Sequence record: OR896837.1
DNA from: Escherichia phage vB_Eco_mar004NP2
Length of the DNA: 64,000 nucleotides
Reading direction: 5' to 3' (one strand)
This document shows, in pieces, positions 50,472 through 56,865 of the stretch; positions within the stretch are counted from its first letter, which is position 1; each line of letters begins with the position of its first letter. The notes beneath the pieces are model-generated. The model saw only the letters and a list, made by a program, of their open reading frames with translations, ran no database searches and had not been told where the DNA came from. The position numbers were made by a program, and so were the translations under genes.

Positions 50472-52229
50472 TTAGGTAAGGCGTTGAACTGTTACTCTTA
50501 ATCTCGGTAGGAAAACTGCACTACCTAAACTTACGTGCATAACTACCCCTAACTCTACATTTCCATTCCCCAGATTTTTAGCAGTATATATAAAACTATT
50601 TCTACTTAGGGCATTGTTAGGTGTGTACCTAAAAGCAGATGTAGTATGAAAAGGTACTAAATACCCTACTGGTAATGTTAAAATCTGGTGGAATATTGCA
50701 TCTCCATTACTATAGCTATATGCTCTTCTTCCTTGCACTTGAAACACACCGTTATTCCATGTATTAGCAGGAACACCTGCACAGTTAAGGTTACCTGATA
50801 TAACTTCAGTGGTAAGAATTACTGTAGCATTGCCACCCGGTATACCTAGCCCAATAGTTGATAAACCAACGTATCTATCCCCTGTTCCCGGGTAGCTGGG
50901 AGTAATATCATCCCCCATGTAAGAGCTACCTACATTTCCACCAAAAAGTCGTAATGGAACTGCTGATGGTCCCCAAACAACCCCGTGTTCATTACCGATA
51001 GTATTATCCCTAGAGTTTACATACCATTGCTTACCCGCTCCGAATTTGTAAATGCTAATTTGGGATTTAGCTCCACCATAGTCTACAGGAGACCATAATC
51101 CTCCATTACTAGACCCTACAAGTTCACACCTTGCCGTGGTATCCCCAAAAACCCCGGTATACGCTGCGTTATTTCCTATATACTCCATATCAGGACGGTA
51201 ACCTAGGTTACCAAAAGCATTCTGATTTATAAATTTATACCCGGTATTAGGGAGACTTACCCCTTTAATTATGAAATTAGAAGGAGATATAAGAATATCA
51301 GAACCAGTAAAGGGGTTGCCTGAAATACTCATTCCACCATTAGAGTACCTTAAATTAAGAACATACCAAATAACCTTAGTAGGGGTTATATTATACCAAT
51401 CCTGTAGTATTGTAGAGTCACCCGACTGGTTAGCTAAATTAGTAGTAGATCCCCTACAAACAAATCTGTTCCCACCGTCGTGGTACATAGTATTTACATT
51501 ACCTGGGAGCCCTTGTCTAACCCCACCGTATCCACGTATATTAGAGTTGCAAACATAAAACCAATCATGCCCTCTATGTGCTGCTCCTAGAGGCGACATC
51601 CATCCAGGATCCCAATAGTACGGGTTATTCCCATCTACAGGTACTGTGCTACTATTAGTAGGAAAACCTAATTGTGCAAAGGCTTCTGCAACAGTAACAC
51701 CTACAGGAGCTCCCGCACCAGGCCTAACTATCCCATGGTAGGTACTATGTAACGTAGTACCACCTGTACCACTCCTAGAGATAGATTCTTCGTGCCATAT
51801 CGATGGGTTATAATTATAAGTTCCAGATGCTAGACTATTACCAAATGCAAATCCACTGGTTTGAGAAACACTAGCAAAAGATCTAAAGGGGTCTGCTTGA
51901 GTGGCAACTATAGTTTGACCAACTTTACTCTGAGTACCATTAAGAAAAGCTCTGTGAGTACCATTAATCTCAATAGCAGTTAGTATAACTCTACCAGGAT
52001 CATTAGATTTAATATTTACTATATCAGGAGGCATCTGACATACGAAAAACCCATTCCCGGCATCACCTAATCCTGCCTCATAAGTACCCTCAACTAGAAC
52101 AAATGGCATATCACTATGAAAAATACTATTATTACTTGGACTATAGTGACGATTAATGTCACCCCCAGATTCAGTATTTAAAGATAGTACGGTCTTACCA
52201 TCGCTATACTTTCCAGCGAAAAAACCCAT
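50472..52229 (-). CDS. receptor-binding tail protein (pb5/Oad-like)
   Basis: 585-aa Gly/Asn/Thr-rich beta protein, divergent from the lipoprotein gene as in T5 oad-llp. Confidence 0.5.
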
Positions 52230-52314: not shown

Positions 52315-52581
52315 ATGAAAAAGTTTGTAATTGCACTAGTTGCCACAGTTATATTATCTGGTTGTGTACCTGCTCCCAAACCATTTTGTACGGGATTTGT
52401 AAAATCTTTTGGTGGTGCGGGAGAAGAATATTACGGTCTCAAGGTTCAAAAAGTTCGTATTAAGGGAGATCGCTTTCCAGTAGTACAGCTCCGTACTAAA
52501 TTTGGGTGGTGGGATCTCAGTCAGTTTGACCTTAAATATGGTGATTGTAAATTTAAACTAGAGCAATCTAATTACCTGTAA
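52315..52581 (+). CDS. llp: lytic-conversion lipoprotein (Llp-like), predicted receptor blocker
   Basis: Signal peptide with lipobox: MKKFVIALVATVILSGC; 88 aa; divergent from the receptor-binding protein gene. Confidence 0.6.
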   Translation: MKKFVIALVATVILSGCVPAPKPFCTGFVKSFGGAGEEYYGLKVQKVRIKGDRFPVVQLRTKFGWWDLSQFDLKYGDCKFKLEQSNYL

Positions 52582-52748
52582 TTAGTATAAAACAAAAAGA
52601 CATCCAAGTAAACTAAATTTTTTATTTCTTGGATGGTATATTGGCAGAAACCACTATGTAAGAAAAGTAGAAGTCCTTCTAGGAGTCCACAAGCACGGTT
52701 GGTTATGCACATATTTTAAAATATCACATTTATGGGAGCACGAAAGAT

Positions 52749-52877
52749 ATGTCAAACAAAAGAAATAATAGACGCGGAGAGGTGTATGAGAGTTGGATAA
52801 ATAGTTTTGGGTTCGGAACTCTCCTATTCTTTATTTTCGTAGGTTTTTGGTTAGCAGCTATGGCGGGGTGGATTTAA
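52749..52877 (+). CDS. small membrane protein (42 aa)
   Basis: ORF below the track cutoff, translated by hand: MSNKRNNRRGEVYESWINSFGFGTLLFFIFVGFWLAAMAGWI; one predicted TM helix. Confidence 0.3.
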   Translation: MSNKRNNRRGEVYESWINSFGFGTLLFFIFVGFWLAAMAGWI

Positions 52878-52984
52878 TGGAATGGGTAATTATTGCACTA
52901 TTAGGGATTGTGATTATTGGGCAATGTATTTTAGATAATCACTTAGCTAGAATTGAAACTTTATTGCTGGAGAAACGTAAATGA
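52877..52984 (+). CDS. small membrane protein (35 aa)
   Basis: Hand-translated MEWVIIALLGIVIIGQCILDNHLARIETLLLEKRK; start overlaps the previous stop (TAATG). Confidence 0.3.
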   Translation: MEWVIIALLGIVIIGQCILDNHLARIETLLLEKRK

Positions 52985-53175
52985 TGGAAGTGGCAGCTAC
53001 ATTAATAGTAATATTAATCTGGGCAATTTTCATTGTTTCTTATACCGCGTATGTTCGCCTAAAAACTCTAGAGGCCCAGGTAAAGCAGCAACAATTTGCA
53101 CTAGAAAAATTAGTAGAGCTTCAACGCTGTGATAGTACCCGTATTCTGCAAATTGAGAGGGAATTAGATGTTTAG
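52981..53175 (+). CDS. small membrane protein (64 aa)
   Basis: N-terminal TM helix (AATLIVILIWAIFIVSY) then coiled-coil-like tail; ATGA overlap with the previous ORF. Confidence 0.4.
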   Translation: MMEVAATLIVILIWAIFIVSYTAYVRLKTLEAQVKQQQFALEKLVELQRCDSTRILQIERELDV

Positions 53176-53413
53176 TATTGTAATTGCTTTTATTATCGGG
53201 ATACTCGCGGGAGTTTTCGGGACGACTGCGGCAATCAATAAGCATCGTAAATATATTGCGGGAGTGACGCGGGAGATTGCGGAAAGGGAGCGGAAGTTTG
53301 ACGAGAAACGTGCGGAGTTTGAGCGGGAGTGGTCGGATGGATCTCGGGCGTCGCGGAAGAGATTCCGTGAGTTCAGACCAGAATACAGGTTTGATGACCC
53401 TTCTATGCGCTAA
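53168..53413 (+). CDS. small membrane protein (81 aa)
   Basis: N-terminal TM helix (IVIAFIIGILAGVFG), highly charged C-terminus; 3' end lies in the 76-bp tandem repeat. Confidence 0.4.
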   Translation: MFSIVIAFIIGILAGVFGTTAAINKHRKYIAGVTREIAERERKFDEKRAEFEREWSDGSRASRKRFREFRPEYRFDDPSMR

Positions 53414-53519
53414 TTTGACTTTTGCCAATTTCTTTGGATTACGTGAGTTCAGACCAGAATACAGGTTTGATGACCCTTCTATGCGCTAATTTGACTTTTG
53501 CCAATTTCTTTGGATTACG
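53368..53519. repeat. 76-bp tandem direct duplication (2 copies)
   Basis: GTGAGTTCAGACCAGAATACAGGTTTGATGACCCTTCTATGCGCTAATTTGACTTTTGCCAATTTCTTTGGATTAC occurs at 53368-53443 and again at 53444-53519. Confidence 0.9.
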
Positions 53520-53641
53520 TACGCGTGGGTGTGTCCAGTGGCCCCCCAGATGAGAATGAGTCTCATTACCGCCCGGTACTTAGCAGGCTAATAGTCACGG
53601 CATGGTATCATTACACACCGTGACTATTTCAACTTTAATTG

Positions 53642-54376
53642 TTAGGCAACTTTTAATTTCTCAATATATTGTTGAGGACTGCAACTATATTCTGCGCGTT
53701 CTTCCTCGGTCATACCTTCCCAGCATAATTTTAAACGGTCAGCTAGGAATTGATAATCATTATCATCGTCGAGAGATTCATCAATAAAGGTTTCACCTAT
53801 CAATGCCACGCCGATTGATAGAATATCATTAACGGCTTGTGCGTCCAGCGTTTTAAATCCGTATGACGCTGCCGCTGATAGCACGCCTTTATGATCATCA
53901 ATCATTGTAAAATCAGCGTTAGGATATAACTGTTTAAATAATTCAAAATAATAAGATTTATATACTGCGTCTTTGCTGTGGTATATTTCGCTAACCTTAT
54001 CAGCTTTAAAATATTTGTGTAGTGTATCGCGGGAAAATACGCGGATATTACTATTACCACGACCGCGCAACCCTTGTTTACGCAAGAAATAATAGTCCGA
54101 CTTACTCATCAGTCGAGCGGTGCAAATAATGTTTAAAGTATTTGCGTCATTCATGCACTGGCGCATATATTCAACCAATGGCAATAAAGTATCTTGCATT
54201 ATTAAATGGTGTTTACACGCTTCATTTTTATACTTATTTAAATCTAAATTGCCCTCGCTATCAAAGCAGGGTGCTATACGATGGAAAGAATTAATGATAG
54301 TGCCGTCTAAATCCCAAATCATGACGCGGGAAATATGCGGGAAGCTGCGGGAAAGATTCATGATAGCTTTATTCAT
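53642..54376 (-). CDS. dmp: HAD-family 5'-deoxyribonucleotidase (Dmp-like pre-early protein)
   Basis: HAD motif I IWDLDGTII; 244 aa; next to the A1-like gene. Confidence 0.65.
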   Translation of the reverse strand: MNKAIMNLSRSFPHISRVMIWDLDGTIINSFHRIAPCFDSEGNLDLNKYKNEACKHHLIMQDTLLPLVEYMRQCMNDANTLNIICTARLMSKSDYYFLRKQGLRGRGNSNIRVFSRDTLHKYFKADKVSEIYHSKDAVYKSYYFELFKQLYPNADFTMIDDHKGVLSAAASYGFKTLDAQAVNDILSIGVALIGETFIDESLDDDNDYQFLADRLKLCWEGMTEEERAEYSCSPQQYIEKLKVA

Positions 54377-55200: not shown

Positions 55201-56865
55201 TTACGCAAAGAATTTACCGTTTTTAAAGTCAATCAAAGTGCGCTGACCGTTTGCATAGGTAATTAAATGCGTTTGCGTCCAGCTTGACGCGCCAACGTTG
55301 TAACCCATGTCCAGACTACCAGCTACGCCAGCGGTATACACGCCGCCATAAATGCTGGCGGTGTGAGTGTGTCCGGTGTTTAATTTGCCCAATTTCTTAA
55401 ATTGTTTAGGATTGCCACGGCTGCCGTTAATGCCGTTGTGACCGTGTACGCCGCATTCAATGCCTACAATCTTGAAAGATTGGTCAGTAGTTAGAAAAAT
55501 GGCGTTAAACTCACAACCTGCAACCTTGCGCAGCGCATAATCTAGCACGTTGAAAGTATCGTCTTTTTCTGCAATAGCTCCATAAATCGCGGCATTTAGG
55601 CGGTGATATAGTTCCGCGTTTGCTGGATCGTCTTTAATGTTAGCATTACGATCATCAAGCCAACGGGATAGCGCCAAATCGTGATTAGATTCAACAATGA
55701 TTGTTTGCGAGAAATCACGTTCCATTGATTCCAGCACGCGCCCCGTATCGATAAGATCATCTAATACCTTATCACGTCCGGCGGCGTATTGTTTTGCTAG
55801 GAATACACCGGATGCGCGGTTGTGATGGTTGCGTGATGTAAAATCATGCACGTCATGGATAAACTGATATTTAGGCTTGAGAATATCAAGCAAGCTATTT
55901 TCGCCAGCCCATGACGCAACGGCACAATCATCATCTAGTTTTTCTGCGTGAATATCGCCGTATTGCAAGCCTAAAACATGCCCCGATGTCTCATAGCATC
56001 CGGCAGGAGTAGCGCACACATTCAGATCATAAAATACCCCGCTTTCGTCCATCGTTTCGAGCTGGCGTACAAAAAATTCCCCGTCCTCGTCGAACTCGAC
56101 AATTAGCGCACCGAAGTTATGCAGCGCCTCGGCCTTTTGTCCTGCTTTCTGCTGAATGTAGTTTTTGAGCGTTGCCGTTCCGGTTGAGTACATACGGCGC
56201 ACTACTTCACCTTTTAAAGCTGGCACGCTTTCAGCGGTAATTTTAGCGTGACCAATTGCCAGACCTTCCAGATTAAGCGCCGTTGCAGTTTCAGCGAATC
56301 CAGAAAGCGGATAATCTGCGGTTGGCAAAACGTTAATTTCAGCCATGAAAGCAAAACGGCGGTTATTTAAAAACACGTTTTTATTGCAGATATATTTGTC
56401 AAATGCGGAATCATATTTTATTCCTTCTGCACCCTCGCCATTTTGAAAACCGTTTTTGTTATAAATAAACTTGCTAACCAGCAAATCAGCGCCGATATAT
56501 TTAGCAAATTGCTCCAATGAGGCTAAAAAGTTTTTATGCGGGAAAGTATTATTCTGAATCGACGTAATAATAAAGCGTTTACCCTGCTTTACTTCCCATT
56601 GCTCAACCGTGCTAGAAACAATCCCCGCCGCTTCTGGACGCTCATCGTTTTTAATGGCTTTTGCTACTTTCGCCGCTTTCGGTTTAGCTGGTTTATTTGC
56701 TTCCAACCAGTCGCAGATAGCGGTCGAGTGTTTTGTTGTATCGTAGACCGCTTTTGATATATCGTCGCAGACCTCCAGTTTAGTAGCGCGCAGACGTTTA
56801 CCATAGAAATTAAAGTCAGCGGCCATTTTCAGGATAACGGTTTGTTTTTCTGTGGAAATAATCAT
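55201..56865 (-). CDS. A1: A1-like pre-early metallophosphatase/nuclease
   Basis: 554 aa with calcineurin-like motifs (GDIHAE, ESNHD, GVHGHNG, GHTHT); size close to T5 A1 (about 556 aa as I recall). Confidence 0.65.
   Translation of the reverse strand: MIISTEKQTVILKMAADFNFYGKRLRATKLEVCDDISKAVYDTTKHSTAICDWLEANKPAKPKAAKVAKAIKNDERPEAAGIVSSTVEQWEVKQGKRFIITSIQNNTFPHKNFLASLEQFAKYIGADLLVSKFIYNKNGFQNGEGAEGIKYDSAFDKYICNKNVFLNNRRFAFMAEINVLPTADYPLSGFAETATALNLEGLAIGHAKITAESVPALKGEVVRRMYSTGTATLKNYIQQKAGQKAEALHNFGALIVEFDEDGEFFVRQLETMDESGVFYDLNVCATPAGCYETSGHVLGLQYGDIHAEKLDDDCAVASWAGENSLLDILKPKYQFIHDVHDFTSRNHHNRASGVFLAKQYAAGRDKVLDDLIDTGRVLESMERDFSQTIIVESNHDLALSRWLDDRNANIKDDPANAELYHRLNAAIYGAIAEKDDTFNVLDYALRKVAGCEFNAIFLTTDQSFKIVGIECGVHGHNGINGSRGNPKQFKKLGKLNTGHTHTASIYGGVYTAGVAGSLDMGYNVGASSWTQTHLITYANGQRTLIDFKNGKFFA

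Follow-up and report, generated by a model that had tools for sequence, protein, structure and literature searches.

Four coupled genes for small membrane proteins beside the right terminal repeat of a BF23-type T5-like phage, and their possible role

Which task is fulfilled by four very small, overlapping genes that are squeezed between a lipoprotein gene and the pre-early gene block of a T5-like phage? The preliminary description of this locus, which lies in a stretch of 64,000 nucleotides of Escherichia phage vB_Eco_mar004NP2 (record OR896837.1; hereafter the window), had proposed a pre-early module for injection, superinfection exclusion or membrane targeting rather than classical lysis genes. 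The window belongs to a T5-like phage of the genus Tequintavirus with a receptor module of the BF23 type, and the cassette is almost certainly the T5.159-T5.162 operon of such a phage. The products of ORF1 to ORF4 match the whole profiles of PHROG 8596 (E=2e-30), 6369 (E=2e-25), 5851 (E=2e-34) and 6447 (E=3e-47), respectively, all of them families of unknown function. They are 84-94% identical to the T5 proteins (88% for ORF1 and T5.159), which are annotated in the T5 reference genome (NC_005859) with the remark "contains single transmembrane domain". Gene order, lengths of 42, 35, 64 and 81 aa, overlaps and the slot on the far right of the unique genome region, with llp on one side and the right terminal repeat on the other, are alike in both phages. 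They differ in the pb5/llp module, which is of the FhuA type in T5, and in a 76-bp tandem duplication 3' of ORF4, which is additional in the studied phage (Table 1). The cassette ORFs are genuine, strongly conserved genes that had already been annotated in T5 as hypothetical; finding them here is a re-discovery.

Table 1. Features of the cassette region, with positions in the window.
Feature	Position	Strand	Basis and remarks
llp, BF23-type receptor-blocking lipoprotein	52315..52581	+	88 aa; PHROG 1119 Cor/Llp E=7e-24; lipobox LPAM_1; annotated in relatives
Spacer hairpin between llp and ORF1, CATCCAAG..19 nt..CTTGGATG	52601..52635		sequence and fold
ORF1, T5.159 orthologue	52749..52877	+	42 aa; basic N-tail K4 R5 R8 R9; C-terminal TM helix, residues 20-42
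ORF2, T5.160 orthologue	52877..52984	+	35 aa; N-terminal TM helix, then short amphipathic tail
ORF3, T5.161 orthologue	52981..53175	+	64 aa; N-terminal TM helix, then heptad-patterned helix
ORF4, T5.162 orthologue	53168..53413	+	81 aa; N-terminal TM helix, highly charged helix
Perfect 76-bp tandem duplication, 2.1 copies	53361..53520		last 16 ORF4 codons and 3' flank
Left boundary of the terminal repeat (inferred)	about 53532		homologous to T5 genome base 1; alignment
Hairpin AGTCACGG..CCGTGACT between convergent cassette and dmp	53593..53625		sequence and fold; then ATTTCAACTTTAATT on the plus strand
dmp (5'-deoxynucleotidase)	53642..54376	-	pre-early, first such gene in the terminal repeat; converges with the cassette

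The sizes of the four reading frames and their overlapping stop and start codons had been described exactly: ORF1 and ORF2 share 1 nt (TAATG), ORF2 and ORF3 share 4 nt (ATGA), and ORF3 and ORF4 share 8 nt (ATGTTTAG). Shine-Dalgarno sites (GGAG/GAGG-like) lie 5-9 nt 5' of every start. The length of ORF2 is counted from its ATG; a TTG 30 nt upstream would extend it to 45 aa. Each protein contains one strongly hydrophobic segment of 19 residues (Kyte-Doolittle mean 2.1-2.6), well beyond what chance would give and in agreement with the single transmembrane (TM) helix claimed before, and the general picture of small membrane-targeted proteins from a translationally coupled cassette is supported. 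Charges flanking the segments favour an N-out/C-in topology for ORF4 and N-in for ORF1, and are ambiguous for ORF2 and ORF3. The AF2 model of ORF4 predicts a single helix over residues 2-69 (pLDDT 72); the juxtamembrane motif AINKHRxY of this protein is invariant, and its C-terminal tail (residues 68-81) is variable. The GC-rich codon usage that was said to distinguish the cassette from the late genes applies to ORF4 alone (GC 0.50, GC3 0.52), but not to ORF1-3 with GC contents of 0.39, 0.32 and 0.38, compared to 0.39 in the window and 0.40 in pb5. An antisense ORF of 132 aa (53030-53428) was rejected as coding, because its codon position 1 coincides with the class of columns that varies most in ORF4.

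Purifying selection acts on each of the four frames in alignments of 16-26 distinct sequences per frame, from up to 29 related loci, with pN/pS values of 0.16 (ORF1), 0.18 (ORF2), 0.33 (ORF3) and 0.29 (ORF4), for comparison 0.22 for llp and 0.09 for dmp, and the most variable columns at codon position 3. ORF1 is present in 447 phage records, ORF4 in 443 and ORF3 in 314, compared to about 441 records with dmp at an identity of at least 80%. ORF1 and ORF4 occur in roughly every genome of the Markadamsvirinae and ORF3 in about 70%; the latter, absent from about 30%, is a dispensable member of the cassette. ORF2 was found in 29 of 29 loci, one form being divergent. The order of pb5 (minus strand), llp and the four ORFs (plus strand), and the terminal repeat with dmp (minus strand) is shared by T5, chee24, SPLA5b, Baret, Bas33, Stitch and 23 IMG/VR loci. 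All four-gene loci have the same overlaps, and natural three-gene variants without ORF3 re-create the adjacency. Bas33 carries an extra ORF of 51 aa that is a paralogue of ORF2 (E=2.6e-6); a relatedness of ORF2 and ORF3 was not demonstrable in a pairwise comparison of 13 sequences. For ORF4, a HMMER profile search of 1.84 billion representative proteins revealed no relative outside the T5-like family, and when 5.8 billion proteins were searched by k-mer/phmmer, members of this family were the only ones returned. It should be mentioned that ORF1 is frequently missing from annotations, and that the product names given to some cassette ORFs are implausible, among them 'tail assembly protein' and 'tail fiber protein'.

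The placement of the cassette after the lipoprotein gene and before dmp/A1 had been given correctly; its relation to the terminal repeat is the decisive detail. Base 1 of T5, whose bases 1-11 read TGTCCACTGCC, aligns to about position 53532 of the window, and the cassette ends about 119 nt to the left of this boundary. In T5 the right terminal repeat starts at 111532, 42 nt past the stop codon of T5.162, and the annotations of chee24 and Stitch likewise place the cassette just left of the right repeat. It lies wholly in the unique region and is therefore never within the first-step-transfer DNA, the leftmost 8% or so of the genome. The 76-bp duplication is specific to the studied genome and leaves the ORF4 product unchanged; we also considered it as a common feature of the repeat boundary and discarded this idea, since all 17 related records retrieved with this tail have the unit as a single copy, flanked by an 8-bp microhomology, GATT(C/A)CGT. 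The hairpin in the llp-ORF1 spacer is conserved among loci with BF23-type llp and represents at most a weak attenuator on the plus strand, because a T-run follows on the minus strand only. The hairpin between the convergent cassette and dmp is a possible terminator of the cassette transcript.

Expression data exist for the related phage Bas33 (published RNA-seq, PMC13250531, Dataset S1), including a daunorubicin condition that restricts transcription to the 17 pre-early genes. The orthologues of the cassette region (bas33_0187-0191) received 0-1 reads each with daunorubicin and were transcribed at 20 min of normal infection, and dmp (bas33_0185) stayed high with daunorubicin (log2FC +0.67). 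Transcription of the cassette depends on second-step DNA transfer; with expression only after this step, its members are therefore early or late genes, not pre-early ones. Transcript levels of llp and the cassette were similar in Bas33, with TPM values per gene of 219/127 for llp, 162/137 for the extra ORF and 462/408 for the ORF3 orthologue, and of 525/444 for the HNH gene downstream. The counts were erratic by gene, ranging from about 1-2 reads for the genes of 129 and 108 nt to 51-104 for the ORF4 orthologue, and the near-zero counts of the shortest genes may reflect the way in which reads are assigned when very short genes overlap. The only promoter-like sequences of the sigma-70 type were weak: in the window, TTGACC-16-TAAATT within the 3' end of llp, and in T5, TTTACA-17-TAGAGT ahead of T5.159; the total number of such sites equals the shuffled expectation in the window and is about 2 sd above it in the T5 stretch. 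RNA-seq for T5 itself is reportedly contained in the DRT4 paper. No intrinsic terminator was detected on the plus strand of the interval between llp and the cassette, and llp is probably its co-transcription partner.

The cassette is independent of the receptor module. It has been kept across swapped pb5/llp modules: pb5 of T5 is only 31% identical, llp of T5 gave no match, and homology to T5 restarts about 45 nt upstream of ORF1. Any target of the cassette proteins should therefore be receptor-independent. A lipobox was not found in ORF1-4, and the Pfam match to a lipoprotein attachment site is confined to llp. Lacking this signal and conserved across non-homologous llp/pb5 modules, the four proteins fall outside the Cor/Llp group.

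Searches for remote homologues gave little beyond architecture. In Pfam and NCBIfam all four proteins stayed below the curated cut-offs, PADLOC returned no match for them, and a sequence search of the PDB gave no meaningful match. ORF4 scored 21.9 bits against LapA_dom (PF06305; gathering threshold 28, E=1.6e-4), with only the TM helix and the juxtamembrane part covered, and further sub-threshold matches to FtsL_COG5462 (E=0.03) and a ZapG-like family (E=0.25); ORF3 matched PspB over its full length, also sub-threshold (E=0.19). Together with hits to Rz-like spanins, MS2 lysis protein and a Beclin coiled coil, these were judged as compositional similarity of a TM segment plus coil. A literature search by gene name and topic found no paper on T5.159-T5.162.

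As to the function, we tentatively propose that the cassette encodes an accessory complex of the inner membrane that is expressed together with llp and keeps out superinfecting phages whatever their receptor; this is a possibility that we favour without considering it probable. The four proteins would be anchored in the inner membrane of the host, probably as one small hetero-oligomer, because coupled translation gives a fixed stoichiometry. Cassette and Llp would then represent two layers of 'lytic conversion', in which Llp plugs a specific outer-membrane receptor and the cassette may interfere with DNA entry at the inner membrane by blocking or destabilising this step, i.e. the tape-measure/pb2-mediated passage. 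Since this step is common to all T5-like phages, relatives with any receptor would be excluded. Obviously, the adjacency to llp counts for little in a mosaic phage genome, and neither homology (Pfam, NCBIfam, PADLOC, PDB, PHROGs) nor an experiment in the literature searched ties any of ORF1-4 to exclusion.

Other explanations have to be weighed against this proposal. A pre-early module for injection or host takeover, expressed from first-step-transfer DNA, was suggested by the proximity to dmp/A1 in the linear sequence and by nothing else. We regard it as extremely improbable, because the terminal repeat does not include the cassette in T5, chee24 or Stitch nor, by homology, in the window, the strand of the cassette is opposite to that of the pre-early genes, and its Bas33 orthologues have no more than 0-1 reads when only pre-early genes are transcribed. 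Moreover, it adjoins the right copy of the repeat, which enters the cell last according to the published two-step transfer model. The pre-early assignment has accordingly been given up, and the location outside the first-step-transfer DNA together with the RNA-seq data makes a role in injection unlikely. Just as hard to believe is the assumption that the ORFs are incidental and that the region acts as cis-acting DNA at the junction of unique region and terminal repeat, for example in terminase recognition or repeat regeneration. The distance of 42-119 nt between cassette end and repeat boundary, and the 76-bp duplication that abuts this boundary in the studied genome, would fit such a role. 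However, codon-position-specific variation and pN/pS values of 0.16-0.33 show selection on the proteins, start/stop geometry and Shine-Dalgarno sites are conserved, and the sequence nearest to the boundary, the tail of ORF4, is the least conserved stretch of the cassette, and in some phages HNH insertions have taken its place.

Two further explanations place the proteins in the membrane as well. They could be accessories of lysis timing, i.e. antiholin-like or holin-modulating proteins or membrane-perturbing peptides that adjust the triggering of the T5 holin, since holin/antiholin systems typically include small proteins with one TM helix and a charged tail, and ORF3 weakly matches an Rz-like spanin family (PHROG 739, E=0.16) and the MS2 lysis protein (Pfam, E=0.086). 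In ORF3, as in spanins of the Rz/Rz1 kind, the N-terminal TM helix leads into a heptad-patterned helix, in the style of a miniature i-spanin. However, these matches are non-significant, ORF3 has 64 aa compared to a profile of 122 positions, its absence from about 30% of relatives speaks against such a role, and ORF1-4 are without an embedded or adjacent lipobox lipoprotein partner; the best spanin match stays far from assigning any of them to the two-component spanins. Furthermore, the lysis cluster of T5 is complete with endolysin T5.040, holin T5.041 and spanins T5.044/T5.045, and lies about 90 kb away from the cassette; holin and endolysin, at 19.9-21.0 kb, are not linked to the cassette at 110.8-111.5 kb. 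The earlier statement that these are not classical lysis genes therefore stands, and we consider a function in lysis timing quite improbable. Alternatively, each bitopic protein could bind a host inner-membrane complex and thereby tune host physiology or disarm defence in the replicative phase, and would in this resemble SPO1 gp56, the small membrane protein Gp11 of PhiNM1 and T4 Ac. Candidate targets would be FtsL/FtsB-type coiled coils of the divisome, Psp envelope-stress components, LPS-assembly or FtsH adaptors, transporters or membrane-bound abortive-infection effectors. The architecture of a TM helix plus charged or heptad helix, the resemblance of ORF4 to LapA_dom, FtsL and ZapG-like proteins and of ORF3 to PspB, and the conservation independent of the receptor module, which fits a host-wide target, are consistent with such modulators, and PMC11237401 describes a small phage membrane protein that blocks division of Staphylococcus aureus. 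On the other hand, all these family matches remain under curated thresholds, as is typical of compositional similarity, and T5 already encodes the pre-early division inhibitor Hdi, as cited in PMC13250531. Hence, we see host modulation as rather unlikely.

In T5, a classical model phage, the four genes are still without a functional annotation, though two of them occur in essentially all sequenced relatives. Placing the cassette in the unique region removes the tempting pre-early hypothesis and narrows the focus to membrane-level functions in the replicative phase. If receptor-independent exclusion or a membrane-modulating complex is confirmed, the picture of 'lytic conversion' by T5 would be completed, and this would be relevant for the design of cocktails of T5-like phages, given the mutual exclusion between related phages.

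Among known systems, Llp of T5 and BF23 is likewise a small protein of the envelope that the infected cell produces, encoded adjacent to the cassette on the same strand and probably on one transcript. It differs by its lipobox, its targeting to the outer membrane and its co-variation with the receptor-binding protein, whereas ORF1-4 are bitopic TM proteins without such co-variation. In terms of mechanism, the proposal follows the analogy of T4 Imm, HK97 gp15 and P22 SieA, small phage inner-membrane proteins that are proposed to stop the passage of DNA after adsorption, whatever the receptor occupancy. To these the cassette showed no similarity in the Pfam and PHROG scans; they are single proteins, mostly with at least two TM helices, whereas the cassette comprises four coupled single-pass proteins. 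In the same genomic slot, where genes diverge from that of the receptor-binding protein and converge with dmp, Providencia phage PSTCR5 has gp047-gp051 for proteins of 29, 30, 46, 44 and 31 aa, and Klebsiella Sugarlandvirus has LOCUS150/151 for proteins of 74 and 153 aa with TM plus coiled coil; as in the cassette, the products have one TM helix. The PSTCR5 genes overlap or closely abut as in the cassette, but their number and sizes differ. In the comparison of 13 sequences, T5 proteins showed no significant similarity to those of the Providencia and Klebsiella phages (best pairwise E=0.02), and Vibrio and Aeromonas relatives had no comparable cassette. It is conceivable, if improbable, that the slot between receptor-binding protein gene and right repeat is a conserved 'micro-membrane-protein' locus of the Demerecviridae, filled by T5.159-162 in the Markadamsvirinae and by non-homologous analogues in Priunavirus and Sugarlandvirus, whose products would form a hetero-oligomeric inner-membrane complex for receptor-independent exclusion or for closing the DNA-entry channel after second-step transfer. 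If true, this would be a new multi-subunit exclusion system made of proteins of 30-80 aa.

The ORFs between llp and dmp were found at the positions and with the lengths reported in the preliminary description, which proved accurate in all but one respect. Translational coupling is evident from the stop/start overlaps TAATG, ATGA and ATGTTTAG and from a Shine-Dalgarno sequence at every start, and each protein has, as had been predicted, one TM helix (a single hydrophobic 19-mer, mean Kyte-Doolittle 2.1-2.6). The alleged GC-richness holds for ORF4 (GC 0.50, GC3 0.52), but not for ORF1-3 (GC 0.39, 0.32 and 0.38), which resemble the window average of 0.39. ORF1 combines a basic N-terminal tail with a C-terminal anchor, while in ORF2-4 the anchor comes right at the N terminus and precedes a helix that is amphipathic, heptad-patterned or highly charged. 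In the AlphaFold2 model of ORF4 (mean pLDDT 72), residues 2-69 form one helix and the tail is disordered; the C-terminal tail (residues 68-81) varies by lineage (REFRPEYRFDDPSMR, MSESGDKPVDRRSS, AKVSDEE).

The cassette is already known as an entity, since the T5 annotation and the PHROG catalogue both include its genes. The T5 orthologues T5.159, T5.160, T5.161 and T5.162 (88, 94, 84 and 88% identity to ORF1-4) are each annotated 'contains single transmembrane domain', and each ORF has a PHROG family to itself; three of these families are listed under 'unknown function', and the fourth is named just 'membrane protein'. SPLA5b and Baret also have all four CDSs annotated. ORF1 often lacks annotation in GenBank records. 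Implausible product names ('tail assembly protein', 'tail fiber protein', 'H-N-H endonuclease') occur among OSYSP, SE11, phiP4, ESCO30, GEC_vB_N7, PS3-1 and SP-3 and look like annotation-transfer errors. Searches of ORF1-4 against Pfam, NCBIfam, PADLOC and PDB gave nothing above curated thresholds; the sub-threshold matches (LapA_dom, FtsL, ZapG, PspB, Rz-like spanin, MS2 lysis) all combine a TM helix with a coiled coil and are regarded as architectural. For ORF4, a k-mer/phmmer search of 5.8 billion proteins found no relatives outside the T5-like family, and the five clusters obtained when 1.84 billion representatives were searched with a full HMMER profile were all T5-like.

ORF1-ORF4 are genes. 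With 16-26 distinct sequences per gene, taken from up to 29 related loci, pN/pS was 0.16, 0.18, 0.33 and 0.29 for ORF1-4, compared to 0.22 for llp and 0.09 for dmp, and codon position 3 was the most variable in every gene. The 132-aa antisense ORF overlapping ORF3/ORF4 was not supported as coding, since the most variable column class falls on its codon position 1; it is probably kept open by the GAR/CGN/AAR-rich codons of ORF4 and is also open in the IMG/VR locus L007. The region matched 349 phage records, nearly all T5-like phages of Escherichia and Salmonella, and is 99.9% identical to Salmonella phage SPLA5b, PMBT29 and Escherichia phage mar004NP2, barring one 76-bp indel. By tblastn, ORF1 was found in 447 and ORF4 in 443 phage records, numbers that match the about 441 records with dmp at >=80% identity; hence, both are essentially universal in Tequintavirus and Epseptimavirus. 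ORF3, with 314 records about 30% fewer than ORF1 or ORF4 (~445), is present in about 70%. The four-gene arrangement is conserved in T5-like relatives, with the same overlap geometry in all four-gene loci compared.

Natural variants exist as well. Three-gene variants without ORF3 (ORF1-ORF2'-ORF4) were seen in the IMG/VR loci L007, L008, L010, L018, L023, L024 and L026; their genes still abut, the ORF2' stop adjoins the ORF4 start, and the ORF2' TM helix has diverged. Bas33/HildyBeyeler (L006 1355-1510) and NBSal005 (L017) have an extra single-TM ORF of 51 aa between ORF1 and ORF2, which is paralogous to ORF2 but longer (pairwise E=2.6e-6); the cassette thus grows by tandem duplication. Epseptimaviruses possess additional ORFs flanking the cassette. 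Furthermore, several relatives carry an HNH homing endonuclease gene as an insertion that separates ORF4 from the terminal repeat: Bas33 (L006 2089-2628, bas33_0186), GEC_vB_N7, VEc33, JLBYU43, NBSal003 and MET_P1_179_112.

The T5.162 stop lies 42 nt before the start of the right terminal repeat, which begins at position 111532 of T5 and has dmp as its first gene. The repeat annotations of chee24 and Stitch, the latter derived from raw sequencing data by the PAUSE method, show the same relation. Together with the window position aligned to T5 base 1 (TGTCCACTGCC), these annotations indicate that the cassette is unique-region DNA abutting the right repeat copy. Under the two-step transfer model from the literature, the first-step-transfer segment never includes it and, given its location at the right genome end, it should be one of the last parts to enter the cell. 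A 76-bp stretch comprising the final 16 codons of ORF4 plus 3' flanking DNA is perfectly duplicated in tandem (two 78-nt copies, 0 mismatches); on its right, the duplication stops 12 nt short of the terminal-repeat boundary inferred at ~53532. Each of the 17 fetched related records with this tail has one copy of the unit, flanked by the 8-bp microhomology GATT(C/A)CGT; the duplication reflects either slippage in the very recent past or an error of assembly.

The cassette proteins are 84-94% identical between T5 and the window, but pb5 only 31%, and a match between the two llp genes was not detectable; homology begins again some 45 nt before ORF1. As the cassette is maintained beside a different pb5/llp pair, its function is independent of the receptor used. 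The window llp is of the BF23/BtuB type, a PHROG 1119 member with a lipobox, and the ORF1 start region, compared by reading, matches the BF23 llp reverse primer (PMC4728585) save two bases. Since the hairpin 3' of llp has its T-run only on the minus strand, it would terminate leftward (antisense) transcription from the dmp side, not llp transcripts.

Features around the cassette, with Bas33 orthologues and their TPM in two untreated replicates (Dataset S1 of PMC13250531; the library may not be strand-specific)
Feature	Window position	Strand	Remark	Bas33 gene	TPM
pb5/receptor-binding protein	50472-52229	-
llp	52315-52581	+		bas33_0192	219 / 127
Hairpin	52601-52635		3' of llp, conserved; T-run TCTTTTTGTTTT on minus strand only
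Cassette	52749-53413	+	between llp and dmp
ORF1	52749-52877	+	42 aa	bas33_0191	0.8 / 1.0
Extra ORF				bas33_0190	162 / 137
ORF2	52877-52984	+	35 aa	bas33_0189	0.5 / 1.2
ORF3	52981-53175	+	64 aa	bas33_0188	462 / 408
Antisense ORF	53030-53428	-
ORF4	53168-53413	+	81 aa	bas33_0187	22 / 13
76-bp duplication	53361-53520
HNH endonuclease				bas33_0186	525 / 444
Partner of T5 base 1	~53532
dmp	53642-54376	-		bas33_0185
A1	55201-56865	-

RNA-seq of Tequintavirus Bas33 at 20 min is available with and without daunorubicin, which restricts transcription to 17 pre-early genes (PMC13250531). Under daunorubicin, llp and the cassette genes had 0-1 reads each and the HNH gene 2 per replicate, while dmp was unchanged (log2FC +0.67). 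Therefore, transcription of the cassette genes does take place in Bas33 but has to await second-step transfer. For the two shortest genes, the near-zero TPM values in alternation with higher ones look like an artefact of read-pair assignment across overlapping genes of 108-129 nt. Transcript levels are similar to llp, and no intrinsic terminator was detected for plus-strand transcription from llp into ORF1; this fits a joint transcript with llp, but there are weak promoter-like sites. Published evidence for early llp expression is cited in PMC4319617.

Regarding function, the preliminary assignment to a pre-early module is refuted by the location outside the terminal repeat and by the 0-1 reads under pre-early-only transcription, and we regard it as highly improbable. 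Its other suggestion, membrane targeting and not lysis, is supported by the hydrophobic helix in each ORF and by the T5 lysis genes annotated away from the cassette (endolysin T5.040, holin T5.041, spanins T5.044/045); a role of the four proteins as lysis-timing accessories is rather unlikely. They might instead modulate host inner-membrane complexes or defences, a possible but doubtful role. That the region, at its junction position, serves mainly as cis-acting DNA is hardly credible given four ORFs that are genes.

We tentatively propose superinfection exclusion. The four proteins would insert into the inner membrane and, because their translation is coupled, probably assemble as one hetero-oligomer; together with Llp, the cassette might form a second, receptor-independent exclusion layer at the DNA-entry step common to T5-like phages. 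Arguments for this proposal are that the cassette adjoins llp and is probably co-transcribed with it, does not depend on the receptor module and is retained almost universally in natural isolates, and that positional analogues adjoin receptor-binding protein genes.

Such analogues were sought in the equivalent slot beside the 3' end of dmp in four genera beyond Markadamsvirinae, and two of them, both Demerecviridae genera, appear to have one, placed like the cassette between dmp and the gene of the receptor-binding protein. Providencia phage PSTCR5 (L032 4322-4870) has five ORFs there that overlap or closely abut (29, 30, 46, 44 and 31 aa), with one hydrophobic helix each, and the Klebsiella Sugarlandvirus K30lambda2.2 (L031 3842-4531) encodes two TM and coiled-coil proteins, 74 and 153 aa long. 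Nothing comparable was seen in this slot in Vibrio phage D411 or Aeromonas phage AhSzq-1. Neither the Providencia nor the Klebsiella set has significant similarity to the T5 proteins, and the shared position is suggestive but does not prove a shared function. As an exclusion system, the cassette would act by analogy with T4 Imm, HK97 gp15 or P22 SieA; superinfection exclusion, also suggested in the preliminary description, is a reasonable guess.
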